In this document: one piece after another, positions 5,636 to 10,830 of the stretch
How the letters are laid out: every line of letters begins with the position of its first letter
Numbering within the stretch: the first letter of the stretch is position 1
Source: a virus
Lineage: Duplodnaviria > Heunggongvirae > Uroviricota > Caudoviricetes
Direction: 5' to 3' (one strand)
Length of the DNA: 64,000 nucleotides
IMG/VR virus record: IMGVR_UViG_3300006143_000275
The notes under the pieces: model-generated
What the model was told of the DNA's origin: nothing
What the model saw: only the letters and a program-made list of their open reading frames with translations
Database searches by the model: none
Program-made: the position numbers and the translations under genes

Positions 5636-5703
5636 ATTTTGTTCGCCGCTATTGACATCTGGTTCAGAGCGTGCTATACTATAACCATAGCGGCGAACAA
5701 AAT
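5636..5703. repeat. 17-bp perfect inverted repeat enclosing a promoter
   Basis: ATTTTGTTCGCCGCTAT (5636-5652) / ATAGCGGCGAACAAAAT (5687-5703). Confidence 0.9.
5652..5680 (+). promoter_or_regulatory. Near-consensus sigma70/SigA promoter for the RNA island
   Basis: TTGACA-17 bp-TATACT with extended -10 TG. Confidence 0.85.
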
Positions 5704-5704
5704 C

Positions 5705-6360
5705 AATGTTCCTTGAAAATTTAATCTTTGCATCATGCTTATTACTAACTCGGTGAACAAAGTGTGTCAGCACTCCGAGGCGTATGGTATTTTCGGTTTG
5801 ACTTGGCGATTGTCTATGGACATCGTAGCATAGGGATACCTTTCAAGTGAGGCCGCTACTGTACAGTGATGTACGGTGGGGAGGCGGAAACCGCCAACAG
5901 AAACATATGTCGCCAAGAGTTATCGCTTCATAACGCACAGAACTTTCGGGCGCAACAATAGACGCTCCTGTGGAGAATAAGCCTTGCAGTAGCTCGGTGT
6001 GGTAGCCGAGAGATACGGAGGTAAAACCAACAATGCGCTCCTGTCTTGATGTCGGAGAAATCCGGCTATAACGAAAGTCACTGGTTAGAGTAGCCGTAGG
6101 ACAGATTGCAAAATCTTTTGAAGAAATTACTATAAAAGTAAGTATTTAATTCAAAACTTTTCTGAACGAACGGTGAAATTTGTGAGTAAACAGGCTCACG
6201 TAGGAGGTGGCGCTATGGCGCTGGGGCAAGAAGTTAGGGGTCGCTCCCCGAAGCTCAGACTTGTCTCCCTGGTGGCGGAACAATGAAGAAGATTATGGAG
6301 GTAGGGCGAAGGCCCAGTGGTGAGTATGATGGAAAGATTAAATTTTCCTTAGAAACAAAC
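5705..6360 (+). ncRNA. Large (~650 nt) structured ncRNA candidate, GOLLD/ROOL-like class; ends approximate
   Basis: No ORF of 60 aa or more; dense GC hairpins; lies between a strong promoter and the first tRNA. Confidence 0.55.
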
Positions 6361-6373
6361 AAAATCAATGTAT

Positions 6374-6449
6374 GGGGTTGTAGCTCAGTTGGGAGAGCGC
6401 CTGTTTTGCAAGCAGGAGGTCGGGAGTTCGATCCTCCCTAATTCCACCA
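6374..6449 (+). tRNA. tRNA-Ala(UGC)
   Basis: Cloverleaf, anticodon TGC, encoded CCA. Confidence 0.95.
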
Positions 6450-6563
6450 GCAAGATATGTTGGTTATGCTGACGCTTGTGTGGTTCAGTTCATTACTTAA
6501 CTACTATTCCTGTCAGAAACCTATCGGTCATGAACGAGGTTCTTCGGACGCATATCGCTAAAT

Positions 6564-6639
6564 CGGGATATAGCTCAGTTGGTAGAGCACACGACTGATA
6601 ATCGTGCGGTCAGAAGTTCAATTCTTCTCGTCCCGACCA
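6564..6639 (+). tRNA. tRNA-Ile(GAU)
   Basis: Cloverleaf, CT-GAT-AA loop, CCA. Confidence 0.95.
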
Positions 6640-6662
6640 TAGGTACTTTGACAATTCTATAT

Positions 6663-7087
6663 GGGGCCGTTTTTAGATTCGACGGGGTTTTGAGAGTGCA
6701 AGACTCACAGGTAGATGACCGCCTAAAGGCATACCTAAAAATGAAATGACAACACTGAATCTGTTGTAATGATCCACCCCGCTTTTGCTGCTTTTGTGGC
6801 TGAGAGGGCTGCTGCCTGATTGGTGGCTGGATTCCAAAACGACGCACCAGCTGGATATGGGTAAGCGTCTGCGGTTAAAGAATCATCCAGCACGTGCAGT
6901 TTCTCCTTGTGCTTCTGTAAAATAAAGACAAGGTGGTGGAGGTGTACAAACCAGTACGCCCTAGGAAAGATTTGACGGTATCGCAAGTGCCCGCCGCAAG
7001 GCATCGCTGGAAAATCGTCTATTGTGTCAGAAGGTCTTGCTCATGTAGGAATTTCGGACAGGGGTGCGAATCCCCTCGGCTCCACCA
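6663..7087 (+). ncRNA. ssrA: tmRNA
   Basis: 5' GGGGCCG...GATTCGAC, 3' CGGCTCCACCA with G3:U70 Ala identity pair; tag ORF 6748-6819 reads (A)DNTESVVMIHPAFAAFVAERAAA-stop. Confidence 0.93.
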
Positions 7088-7093
7088 TACATA

Positions 7094-7149
7094 GGGACAC
7101 TAACAGCAATTTATAATTTTTTAAGGTAAAAAAGAAAAAAAGTGTCCTG
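7094..7149 (+). repeat. ACAGCAA hairpin element, copy 1
   Basis: GGGACACT/AGTGTCCT stem, ACAGCAA just inside, inner TTTT-TTAAGGT-AAAA hairpin. Confidence 0.65.
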
Positions 7150-7150
7150 T

Positions 7151-7238
7151 GAGACGCGCACAGCAAATTTTCAAAATATTCTATCAAATGTTTTTTAAGT
7201 CCGACAAGGATAACCACCTCCATTTTTTTCGCGTCTCG
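7151..7238 (+). repeat. ACAGCAA hairpin element, copy 2
   Basis: GAGACGCG/CGCGTCTC stem with ACAGCAA just inside. Confidence 0.65.
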
Positions 7239-7250
7239 TAGCCTAAGTAT

Positions 7251-7327
7251 TGGCGGGTAGCTCAGATGGCAGTAGCATCTGACTGTTAATCAGAGGGTCG
7301 TGGGTTCGAGTCCCACCCTGCCAGCCA
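7251..7327 (+). tRNA. tRNA-Asn(GUU)
   Basis: Cloverleaf, CT-GTT-AA, CCA. Confidence 0.93.
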
Positions 7328-7403
7328 GTAGCTCAAAACATGGCAGAGAGTTTACAGGCAACTGATGTCTACATCGGTGCTGTTTTTAGAACTGCCAACA
7401 TAT

Positions 7404-7479
7404 AGCGGGATAGAGAAGCGGTCATCTCGTCATCCTCATAAGTTGGAGATCGTGGGTTCGAGTCCCACTCCCGCCACCA
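7404..7479 (+). tRNA. tRNA-Met(CAU), initiator-like body with atypical anticodon stem
   Basis: A1:C72 mismatch and A11-U24 as in fMet tRNA; anticodon stem TCATC/GTTGG. Confidence 0.85.
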
Positions 7480-7636
7480 TGCCCACCCCACAAACAGAGC
7501 GGAGACTGTAAACTGAATGGGGAATAGAAATGTTCACAATCTGGCAGTGAAAACTTTTAGCAGGTTTCAAGCGAAACCGCTGCGTCCCAACAGCAGAGAG
7601 TTGGCACCATGGCCTACGGTGTGAGTAGGTCAATAT

Positions 7637-7712
7637 GTGGGAATAGCTCAACTGGTAGAGCGCCGTCCTTCCAAGTCGGATGTTGCGGGTTCAAGTCCCG
7701 TTTCTCACTCCA
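7637..7712 (+). tRNA. tRNA-Gly(UCC)
   Basis: Cloverleaf, CT-TCC-AA, CCA. Confidence 0.95.
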
Positions 7713-9305: not shown

Positions 9306-9381
9306 GGCCTCGTAGCTCAATCGGAAGAGCGCCAGCCTGTCACGCTGGAGGTAGCGGGATCGAAACCCGCCGAGGTCGCCA
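9306..9381 (+). tRNA. tRNA-Asp(GUC)
   Basis: Cloverleaf, CT-GTC-AC, CCA; T loop ATCGAAA. Confidence 0.93.
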
Positions 9382-9384
9382 TAT

Positions 9385-9458
9385 AGGGGTCTGGTGTAAC
9401 GGTAGCATGAAAGTCTCCAAAACTTTTGGTGAGAGTTCAAATCTTTCGGCCCCTGCCA
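9385..9458 (+). tRNA. tRNA-Trp(CCA)
   Basis: Cloverleaf, CT-CCA-AA, CCA end. Confidence 0.93.
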
Positions 9459-9459
9459 T

Positions 9460-9535
9460 GCTGACGTAGCTCCAATGGTAGAGCAGTTGTTTCGTAAGCA
9501 GCGGGTTCAGAGTTCGAGTCTCTGCGTCAGCTCCA
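9460..9535 (+). tRNA. tRNA-Thr(CGU)
   Basis: Cloverleaf, TT-CGT-AA, CCA. Confidence 0.93.
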
Positions 9536-9538
9536 TTT

Positions 9539-9614
9539 GCTGGTGTAGCTCTAATGGTAGAGCAACCGTTTTGTAAGCGGTGGGTTCTGGGTTCGAGTCC
9601 CTGCACCAGCTCCA
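9539..9614 (+). tRNA. tRNA-Thr(UGU)
   Basis: Cloverleaf, TT-TGT-AA, CCA. Confidence 0.93.
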
Positions 9615-9960
9615 TATTTGCCCGATTGAGATAACATATCACGGCTGTGAGTGGCGGTCGTAATCCAAGGTGGCCTCCTGTGAGGGAGTGACTGGGCATA
9701 AAAGAAAGAGCGGTTAGGTAGCGTTGTACTATCGAGGGCGTTGCGGAAGCTGCGCACAGGCCATAGCCGCACACAGATGGCAACAGCCACGTAACTGCGG
9801 AAGCGTGGATATGTGCAACGGATGTCATGTACATCGAAATACCTTGGTAGACTCAGATGGGAAACACTAATCCCCCTGCTCCCCGATAGAAAGGCTGAAA
9901 TATGGCACAGCGTAAAGGTGTGTGGTGAGGCTGGGAGTGGAGTCACTTATGCAATTTATA
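9615..9960 (+). ncRNA. ~345 nt structured ncRNA candidate between tRNA-Thr and tRNA-Tyr
   Basis: GC-rich spacer with several hairpins and long-range pairs (TGCCC/GGGCA, CCACG/CGTGG, GATGT/ACATC); no RBS-supported ORF. Confidence 0.45.
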
Positions 9961-9961
9961 T

Positions 9962-10048
9962 AGGGGAGCGCCAGAGTTGGAGAGCTGGGGCGGACTGTAA
10001 ATCCGTTGCTTTCGGGCTGAGTGGGTTCGATTCCCACCTCCCCTACCA
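9962..10048 (+). tRNA. tRNA-Tyr(GUA)
   Basis: Class II cloverleaf, CT-GTA-AA, CCA. Confidence 0.93.
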
Positions 10049-10099
10049 CAAGTGTTTGTTGCTACCCGATATGCAACTAAAACAAGGTCGGGTTCAAAT

Positions 10100-10190
10100 G
10101 GCGGAGTGGCCGAGTGGTTGATGGCACCAGTCCTGAAAACTGGAGGCGGTGATGAGCCGTCCGTGGGTTCAAATCCCACCTCCGTCGCCA
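10100..10190 (+). tRNA. tRNA-Ser(UGA)
   Basis: Class II cloverleaf, loop CC-TGA-AA (C33), G73, CCA. Confidence 0.92.
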
Positions 10191-10323
10191 ACGGGATGTG
10201 TTGATATTTACCATTTTCTAACGACCCTATGATAAACGGTACGAAAAGGCGTTACCCCTACGAAACGGGCGGTGGTCTTATGCGCTGACCTGTGATTACC
10301 GTTAAACAAAAATGCGCATATAT

Positions 10324-10400
10324 GGGTTGATGGCTTATGAGGTCTGAGCGACGGTCTGAAAAACCGTAGGATGAAGGATCGTTACCTTCTCAACCCACCA
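10324..10400 (+). tRNA. tRNA-Phe(GAA)
   Basis: Cloverleaf, CT-GAA-AA, CCA; atypical T loop ATCGTTA. Confidence 0.88.
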
Positions 10401-10695
10401 GCCTGAAAAGGCACACCTCTACCCTGGATGACGTGTGACGGTTCTGACACGTCGGTAAAATAAAAATTGACCGAGTGTGGGTAGCATAGGGGTCGCTCCC
10501 TCCGGTGAAATTCCGGCGCAGGCAAAACGCGATAGATAACCTAAACGCTGTAAGCAAAGCGGCATAGCCGATCAGGAGCGCGGCGGGCTAACATACCCCA
10601 ACGGGACTTCGAGAGCCTGAAAAAGTATGTTTTGCACCCGTATCAGTGAGGGTAGGCCAGTGGGATACGGCCACACAGACCCTACCCACCCTTAT
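10401..10695 (+). ncRNA. ~295 nt structured ncRNA candidate, possibly related to the raiA motif
   Basis: Dense hairpins (GACGTGT/ACACGTC, CCGG-TGAAATT-CCGG, GGGTAGG/CCTACCC); shares a 14-nt and a 10-nt word with the 5705-6360 RNA. Confidence 0.55.
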
Positions 10696-10699
10696 ATAT

Positions 10700-10775
10700 G
10701 CGCCTGTAGCTCAGTTGGTAGAGCAGCTGGCTTTTAACCAGTTGGCCGGGGGTTCGAGTCCCTTTAGGCGCACCA
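10700..10775 (+). tRNA. tRNA-Lys(UUU)
   Basis: Cloverleaf, CT-TTT-AA, CCA. Confidence 0.95.
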
Positions 10776-10794
10776 GCAAAATACTATAACGACT

Positions 10795-10830
10795 AAAAAA
10801 ACCTCGGGATCTTCGGATTTCCGAGGTTTT
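10795..10830 (+). terminator. Intrinsic terminator ending the RNA island
   Basis: AAAACCTCGG...CCGAGGTTTT hairpin with T run. Confidence 0.75.

Follow-up and report, generated by a model that had tools for sequence, protein, structure and literature searches.

Which RNAs are packed between the tRNA genes of a dense phage tRNA cluster, and is the cluster a device for making them? The question is raised by positions 5636-10830 of a caudoviricete sequence of 64,000 nucleotides (IMG/VR record IMGVR_UViG_3300006143_000275; hereafter the window), where 19 tRNA genes and a gene for transfer-messenger RNA (tmRNA) alternate with spacers of very different lengths. A first-pass annotation, made from the letters alone, had taken this island for a processing scaffold that releases a suite of unknown RNAs, and for the best candidate in the window for an undescribed system. 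Based on the analysis presented here, we favour, with a probability of roughly 60%, the reading that the region is an operon of tRNAs and stable RNAs from a large phage (about 120-140 kb) of gut Clostridia. Besides the published RNA ROOL, the island contains at least two well-conserved folded RNA families, among them those here called TT and PK, that are absent from Rfam 15. Related loci are denoted below by L and a number, and metatranscriptome runs by X and a number.

Layout of the island and its genomic setting

The island lies between replication genes (exonuclease, HU) and packaging genes (a TerS-like protein, TerL and portal). Related phages were located via the TerS-like protein that adjoins it, and one related complete genome measures 138 kb and carries direct terminal repeats. 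The order ROOL, tRNA-Ala, tRNA-Ile, tmRNA and so on to tRNA-Lys is maintained in eight related loci; the content of the array differs between relatives, which have 17-24 tRNA genes each and have gained or lost tRNAs for Pro, Arg, Val and His. A blastn search with the whole island against GenBank phages returned tRNA matches only. Gut metagenomes of mouse and rat contain the island, as do six metatranscriptome runs.

Both the promoter and the terminator proposed to bound the island could be located, and both are kept in relatives. The promoter, of the sigma-70 type, is found at 5652-5680 on the plus strand (TTGACA-17-TATACT with an upstream TG, 11 of 12 consensus positions) and is enclosed by an inverted repeat, in which a change in one arm is matched in the other in L061/L048, L042 and L053. 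Because the arms co-vary in this way, the symmetry itself is under selection.

5636-5703, no strand: 17-bp inverted repeat enclosing the promoter, read directly from the sequence, with paired arm changes in relatives
10811-10834, plus strand: intrinsic terminator at the end of the island (hairpin at 10811-10826, then a T run)

All tRNA genes that ARAGORN found in the whole 64-kb window, 19 in number, lie on the plus strand between 6374 and 10775, and the Rfam tRNA model recovered the same 19. As first annotated, 16 amino acids are represented, with tRNAs for Arg, His, Pro and Val absent, and every tRNA has an encoded CCA at its 3' end; the same holds for the tmRNA. T is found at position -1 of 19 of the 20 tRNA and tmRNA starts, mostly as TAT. 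With 19 tRNA genes, the island falls short of the number of at least 20 used to define tRNA array units (PMC4758250), and with 19 genes in 4.4 kb (about 4.3 per kb) it exceeds the density of at least 2 per kb used in the same definition. The individual genes, all ending in CCA, are as follows; each tRNA gene was called by both ARAGORN and Rfam, and the tmRNA by Rfam.

6374-6449, plus strand: tRNA-Ala(UGC)
6564-6639, plus strand: tRNA-Ile(GAU)
7251-7327, plus strand: tRNA-Asn(GUU)
7404-7479, plus strand: tRNA-Met(CAU)
7637-7712, plus strand: tRNA-Gly(UCC)
7937-8020, plus strand: tRNA-Leu(UAG)
8096-8181, plus strand: tRNA-Leu(CAA)
8296-8371, plus strand: tRNA-Cys(GCA)
8675-8748, plus strand: tRNA-Gln(UUG)
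8898-8974, plus strand: tRNA-Glu(UUC)
8980-9056, plus strand: tRNA-Glu(CUC)
9306-9381, plus strand: tRNA-Asp(GUC)
9385-9458, plus strand: tRNA-Trp(CCA)
9460-9535, plus strand: tRNA-Thr(CGU)
9539-9614, plus strand: tRNA-Thr(UGU)
9962-10048, plus strand: tRNA-Tyr(GUA)
10100-10190, plus strand: tRNA-Ser(UGA)
10324-10400, plus strand: tRNA-Phe(GAA)
10700-10775, plus strand: tRNA-Lys(UUU)
6663-7087, plus strand: tmRNA with CCA end (RF00023, 66.5 bits against a cut-off of 47 bits)

The tmRNA of the first-pass annotation is thus real. Its 3' end reads ...CTCCACCA, and its tag frame (6748-6819) encodes 23 residues with AAA at the end, followed by a stop. ARAGORN made no tmRNA call in the window and called a collinear tmRNA with a tag in the 83%-identical relative L048. 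A match to the "permuted tmRNA" model (RF04321, 50.5 bits, 6578-6795) falls on tRNA-Ile and on the 5' portion of the ordinary tmRNA; it seems to be caused by the genuine tmRNA rather than by a second gene.

ROOL at the head of the island

The three long spacers, the tRNA mimic and the repeated hairpins that had been noticed between the tRNAs are all present and are conserved in related phages, and covariation was found among homologs in TT, PK, the Ala-Ile, Met-Gly and Gly-Leu spacers, the hairpins and the tRNA look-alike. A lack of covariation in homologs, which the first-pass annotation had named as grounds for refutation, was thus not observed for these elements. The view of the spacers as unknown RNAs holds for TT and PK, which are uncatalogued and had no match in the Rfam search, but not for the largest spacer, which the same search identified as ROOL, nor for two further spacers that are protein genes.

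5725-6334, plus strand: ROOL RNA (Rfam RF03087), covariance-model match filling a 610-nt spacer

The match reaches 348.5 bits against a cut-off of 99.1 bits and spans model positions 1-574 of 574. ROOL ends 39 nt upstream of tRNA-Ala, stands at the same place in five relatives, and belongs to an island that is flanked by phage genes. It is a published family often found near phage tRNA islands, and the placement of both ROOL and GOLLD RNAs beside such islands is known (PMC5737381; bioRxiv 10.1101/2024.12.08.627333). Another member of the family forms an eight-chain nanocage as seen by cryo-EM (bioRxiv 10.1101/2024.12.08.627333). The window gave no match to the Rfam model of GOLLD at E up to 1. 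We also considered the ROOL hairpin GGGGTCGCTCC as a module common to ROOL and PK, and set it aside since it occurs in just two of six related ROOLs.

TT, a 347-nt RNA with two pseudoknots

9615-9961, plus strand: TT RNA, a multi-helix RNA of 347 nt with two pseudoknots, delimited by alignments and covariation; absent from Rfam 15

Homologs of TT in related phages are 67-75% identical, and an exact 19-mer taken from it occurs in 25 viral contigs. Furthermore, TT is found in six Clostridia genome bins (Oscillospiraceae, Ruminococcus, Lachnospiraceae and others), these being the six of 25 matches to a 17-base pattern in a scan of bacterial genomes that were confirmed by a profile search, the rest being mostly chance matches. 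A search of 163 related bacterial genomes, with a query that included the tRNA flanks, returned mostly tRNAs and one true TT match. Forms of about 100 nt also exist, which retain just the 5' and 3' blocks.

The secondary structure of TT is backed by covariation. RNAalifold predicted 68 pairs from 16 sequences, 21 of them with compensatory changes. As an all-against-all scan of column covariation proved too noisy, a helix-level scan of 21 sequences was used instead and resulted in ten helices, two of which are pseudoknots, one formed between the hairpin loop 9649-9655 and positions 9942-9948 of the 3' tail, the other between the hairpin loop 9723-9728 and positions 9950-9955 of this tail. This model comprises 62 pairs, 99.1% of them canonical and 22 compensatory, compared with 0-2 compensatory pairs in slid controls and up to 12 in column shuffles, where the helices had been chosen on the alignment also used for the controls, which flatters the latter, and where one helix shares two bases with a pseudoknot strand.

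Neither the window (E up to 1) nor eight other loci (E up to 0.5) gave a match between TT and any Rfam 15 family; at the same thresholds, RNase P RNA was rejected with the bacterial, archaeal and minimal models, and GOLLD, HEARO and YrlA gave no matches either. TT alone had no blastn match among GenBank phages.

TT occurs in several genomic contexts. In the clade of the window, the gap between TT and the adjacent tRNAs is 0 nt on both sides, and in another clade TT ends exactly at tRNA-Lys. Elsewhere, TT has no tRNA nearby: it stands directly upstream of genes for RlaP and a CCA-adding enzyme in L062, directly upstream of a kinase-phosphatase-Rnl1 fusion in L074, and about 2 kb from RNA ligases in the L065 clade and L070. 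Since TT alternates between tRNA arrays and RNA-repair genes, its distribution suggests a role tied to tRNA damage or handling. In five related phage records, two of them near complete and one of these the complete 138-kb genome, no RNA ligase (PF09414) and no CCA-adding enzyme (PF01743) was found above cut-off. In two Clostridia genome bins, L186 and L176, TT lies just downstream of a class-V aminotransferase (cysteine-desulfurase-like) gene (1167-2402 in L186, 1114-2349 in L176).

Several side observations concern the same RNA. A second phage clade (L066, L075, L071) has arrays of 21-23 tRNAs together with a tmRNA, a small protein gene described below (p76) and a full or mini TT; ROOL was not present in the DNA fetched for these three loci. 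An open reading frame of the window (61921-62415, minus strand) is 46% identical to a 178-aa gene that directly follows TT in L070. This gene, which has no Pfam family, is present in L062 as well, in the vicinity of RlaP and the CCA-adding enzyme. In one bacterial genome (L177 5620-5927; L001 3237-3303), TT is located about 1.4 kb from the host tmRNA gene, which suggests a prophage integrated at ssrA.

The PK module and the packaging genes

10489-10631, plus strand: PK module, the conserved and covarying folded core of the 299-nt spacer 10401-10699; absent from Rfam 15

A 22-letter pattern from the PK core (19 fixed bases) was found in at least 84 viral contigs, mostly of phages of about 40 kb. 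Across 72 distinct sequences, at least 8 of about 30 predicted pairs are compensatory. No Rfam match above threshold was obtained for PK in the window, and PK alone had no match among GenBank phages. The raiA motif was tried for 10401-10695 and gave no match in the window (E up to 1) or in 15 PK loci, a test that a circular permutation would escape; a cobalamin riboswitch, proposed because of similar words, and group II D1-D4 (28 bits) stayed below threshold. The 3' tail of the same spacer (10636-10690), 96% identical in L048, shows a potential H-type pseudoknot in which CCGUAUC/GAUACGG crosses GAGGGUAGG/CCCUACCC.

In the small (about 40-kb) phages that were checked, PK usually begins immediately downstream of a tRNA, with the D12-methyl motif coming next. 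It precedes TerL in both of the other phages checked, with TerL 230 nt downstream in L105 and with a gene resembling queuine tRNA-ribosyltransferase (Tgt; 1552-2415, PHROG 887) in between in L091; in the window it precedes the TerS-like gene and TerL. This position also fits a different view of the locus, in which the island, or at least its 3' part (PK, tRNA-Lys and the terminator), is the leader of a late packaging operon with the tRNAs as passengers, and in which PK (in small phages together with the D12-methyl motif) and the terminator determine how much transcription reads through into the terminase genes. No promoter-like site was detected between the terminator and the gene at 10857, which speaks for this view. 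However, in the window a tRNA and a good terminator separate PK from the packaging genes, and a leader function is silent on ROOL, TT and the other parts. We therefore regard it as quite unlikely for the island, and within the tRNA and stable-RNA operon PK would be a module that belongs to the head of the packaging operon.

Smaller RNA elements between the tRNAs

6450-6563, plus strand: Ala-Ile spacer with a branched fold of about 105 nt; 80-86% identity in L053, L042 and L055
7094-7149, plus strand: ACAGCAA hairpin 1 (fold z-score -2.2); compensatory closing-stem changes in relatives
7151-7238, plus strand: ACAGCAA hairpin 2 (fold z-score -3.2); ACAGCAA word at the matching place in relatives
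7480-7636, plus strand: Met-Gly spacer with a covarying 5' hairpin; 85% identity to L042 and L045
7713-7936, plus strand: Gly-Leu spacer, partly conserved; 79% identity over 100 nt with L048 and L047
8023-8085, plus strand: ACAGCAA hairpin 3; 4 of 7 closing pairs compensatory in seven phages
8182-8295, plus strand: Leu-Cys spacer; 91% identity to L042
8751-8889, plus strand: tRNA look-alike by predicted fold; conserved in L053 and L055
10191-10323, plus strand: Ser-Phe spacer; 90% identity to L053

Among the short spacers, compensatory changes affect 8 of 32 predicted pairs in the Ala-Ile spacer (four sequences) and 9 of 42 in the Gly-Leu spacer (two sequences only). For the Met-Gly spacer the count is 13 of 35, with many pairs broken in distant members and an energy z-score of -0.5. 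The inner stem-loop of hairpin 3 (8055-8069) has the loop CUUUUAA, identical to the anticodon loop of tRNA-Lys(UUU), and its counterpart in L055 (about 7335-7350) has the Asn-like loop CUGUUAA; this inner loop may be an anticodon-loop mimic. The look-alike combines an acceptor stem with a D arm of Leu-like type and a T arm; an expanded variable domain replaces the anticodon arm, and there is no CCA. In L053 and L055, its acceptor stem shows compensatory changes and its insert varies in length.

Protein genes and transcription signals inside the island

The island does not consist of RNA genes only; it contains two small protein genes.

9072-9302, plus strand: 76-aa gene (p76) within the spacer 9057-9305; conserved inside tRNA arrays of several phage clades
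8405-8602, minus strand: 65-aa gene with an AAGGAGG ribosome-binding site; coiled-coil and helix-turn-helix-like tail
8380-8397, minus strand: terminator of the minus-strand cassette (7 G-C pairs, then TTTCTTT)
7328-7403, plus strand: spacer with a terminator-like hairpin and T run at 7361-7378

p76 was found in about 25 loci with 44-96% amino-acid identity and is sometimes duplicated. The predicted model is a four-stranded beta meander (pLDDT 81). Searches of Pfam, PHROG, NCBIfam, PDB sequences and PDB structures (Foldseek) gave no match for it, and the Atlas search gave viral hypothetical clusters only. The second gene occupies a minus-strand cassette (8372-8674) that is not an RNA spacer and at whose place relatives have tRNA-Arg. 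The 65-aa gene itself has no homolog in any related locus and just weak family matches. The cassette with its terminator probably splits the transcription unit in this phage. A weak promoter-like site lies at 8637-8666, ahead of tRNA-Gln, and the hairpin and T run at 7361-7378 form a possible second internal stop.

Such a patchwork could also mean that the extra elements are functionless debris or hitch-hikers, namely decayed tRNA genes, mobile remnants or selfish insertions in a region that tolerates insertion. The variable content of the array, the occurrence of TT in full and mini forms, the uniqueness of the insertion at 8372-8674 and a look-alike that could be a decayed tRNA-Leu would all be expected under such an explanation. 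On the other hand, the helices of TT, PK, the hairpins and the Ala-Ile spacer, like the acceptor stem of the look-alike, have been preserved through compensatory changes, which shows purifying selection on structure, and p76 is kept down to 44% identity. Accordingly, we consider debris very unlikely.

Outside the island, an RT-2 RNA (Rfam RF03077, 153.8 bits) was found at 46697-46914 on the plus strand, at the start of the region of a 464-aa open reading frame, probably a sign that the phage has a reverse-transcriptase or diversity-generating element.

Expression of the island and a possible cis-acting role of the spacers

To the extent that assembled metatranscriptome contigs of four runs, mapped to the window, reflect expression, the 5' part of the island stands out. 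In run X19, bins with ROOL (5337-6670) reached a depth of 2400-3600, as against about 170 for neighbouring contigs and 14 for structural genes; in the same run, a contig covering 9385-10453, TT included, had a depth of 130 against 14 for structural genes. In run X17, a contig on the tmRNA side (3624-8136) had a depth of 533 against 25 for structural genes, about 20-fold. These depths lend weak support to the idea that the 5' part is strongly expressed. Where RNA contigs join or break off at tRNAs, this looks like assembly cross-talk with tRNAs of other organisms.

The conserved spacers might instead act in cis, guarding the folding of neighbouring tRNAs, presenting tRNA ends to RNase P and other nucleases, or setting the sequence and pace of processing, and then be degraded. 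Most short spacers are kept within the close clade only, the TAT leaders before nearly every tRNA suggest selection on processing signals, and TT was enriched in RNA contigs in only one of the four runs. Nevertheless, TT and PK occur in unrelated phages and prophages without adjacent tRNAs, an RNA of 347 nt with ten helices and two pseudoknots is far more elaborate than an insulator would require, and ROOL, which shares the transcript, is a known stable and abundant RNA (10.1101/2024.12.08.627333). We hold a purely cis-acting role to be unlikely.

A model for the maturation and use of the island RNAs

As a tRNA and stable-RNA operon, the island would give rise to one long precursor or to two; in this phage, the unit is probably divided by the minus-strand cassette (8372-8674). 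Host RNase P would cut the 5' end of each tRNA and of the tmRNA, and other nucleases would shorten the 3' ends as far as the encoded CCA. The intervening RNAs, which are tightly folded, would persist as stable by-products, with RNase P defining their 3' ends. The tRNAs and the tmRNA may sustain translation when host tRNAs are degraded or hit by tRNA-targeting defences. TT may serve some step of tRNA damage control or handling, a guess prompted by its position in other phages, where its neighbours are not tRNAs but genes of the RNA ligase, Pnkp-like and CCA-adding types.

The arrangement on one strand with one promoter, one terminator, tight junctions and T at -1 fits a polycistronic precursor cut by RNase P, as far as can be read from the DNA. 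U at -1 is the base preferred by bacterial RNase P. Excision by RNase P together with RNase Z, as originally proposed, is disfavoured in its RNase Z part by the CCA encoded on every tRNA. RNase Z of Bacillus is blocked by an encoded CCA. As all tRNAs carry it, RNase P with other nucleases is likelier than RNase P with RNase Z. The idea of a processing scaffold survives in part: the extra RNAs are real and folded, and several abut tRNAs at 0 nt, but TT and PK are also found without flanking tRNAs, and the array is therefore not a dedicated scaffold for making them.

A number of observations weigh against the operon reading as set out here. With RNase Z disfavoured by the encoded CCA, the reading does not account for the formation of the 5' ends of the in-between RNAs, and the occurrence of TT and PK without tRNA flanks means that these RNAs can be made without tRNA processing. 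Copies of TT outside arrays are invariably found immediately ahead of a gene, a position that a cis-acting leader would fit as well, and the construction of the TT controls described above belongs here too. No evidence of structure was obtained for the Leu-Cys spacer (fold z-score -0.9, no informative variation) or the Ser-Phe spacer (z-score +1.0, zero compensatory pairs). With respect to expression, the TT region was without enrichment in runs X17 and X20, so that it was enriched in one run of four; run X15 showed a flat, DNA-like depth over the whole stretch; and the RNA contigs gave no 5' or 3' ends and cannot show processing.

Comparison with known systems

Phage tRNA islands that combine ROOL with a tmRNA are already known, and in that respect the island is not the undescribed system for which it had been a candidate. 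The closest parallels are phage tRNA islands with ROOL or GOLLD (PMC5737381; 10.1101/2024.12.08.627333): here too, a dense tRNA cluster of a Firmicutes-type phage begins with a full-length ROOL, whose abundance in RNA contigs is far above that of neighbouring genes. In contrast to them, the island also has a tmRNA, two uncatalogued RNA families, a tRNA look-alike, hairpins and a small conserved protein gene. The tRNA array units of Mycobacterium (PMC5966550, PMC4758250, PMC12803027) are likewise dense, cover most amino acids, reside on mobile DNA and are discussed as anti-defence elements; some contain GOLLD or tmRNA. They belong to another host phylum, whereas the present island has 19 rather than at least 20 tRNAs, ROOL rather than GOLLD, and extra RNA families. 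Phage tRNAs are known to counter tRNA-targeting defences (PMC10264068, PMC11555353).

The D12-methyl region of gut phages of about 40 kb (Rfam RF02950) has PK in the same position relative to the terminase genes; unlike it, the window has no D12-methyl match, and PK lies outside the RF02950 model. YrlA RNAs in operons with Rsr and RtcB (Rfam RF02553) are, like TT with its neighbours RlaP, RNA ligases and CCA-adding enzyme, structured RNAs beside RNA-repair genes. However, TT is three times longer, shows no match to YrlA (sub-threshold YrlA hits fall on tRNAs only) and has no recognised tRNA-like module.

The tRNA operon of phage T4 offers a parallel in maturation, as small stable RNAs are encoded with the tRNAs and are matured from shared precursors by host RNase P. 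Two of them, RNAC and RNAD, are encoded within the T4 tRNA cluster. There is no sequence relation, and T4 has eight tRNAs, some without an encoded CCA. The RNAs described here differ from RNAC and RNAD in that they are larger, pseudoknotted and also found outside tRNA clusters. The function of RNAC and RNAD is unknown (PMC9697503).

Implications for phage tRNA clusters

A more far-reaching possibility, rather improbable in our view, is that the island encodes a coordinated RNA toolkit protecting phage translation, with the ROOL cage, TT, PK, the look-alike and the anticodon-loop-like hairpins released from a single precursor and acting together. If this were true, some of the RNAs might, for example, distract anticodon nucleases as decoys or shield tRNAs from them, and TT might assist tRNA repair as an RNA cofactor. 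In that case, TT would represent a new class of large functional RNA that is evolutionarily interchangeable with protein RNA-repair modules.

Phage tRNA clusters are now regarded as a means of countering tRNA-targeting immunity. The role of the large ornate RNAs that travel with phage tRNA clusters, such as ROOL and GOLLD, is a long-standing question, and in this island ROOL is just one of several conserved folded RNAs packed among the tRNAs. With the size of a ribozyme or a large riboswitch, two pseudoknots and its alternation between tRNA arrays and RNA-repair genes, TT provides a testable lead on tRNA damage or handling. As the phage is common in mouse gut samples, it may be within experimental reach.

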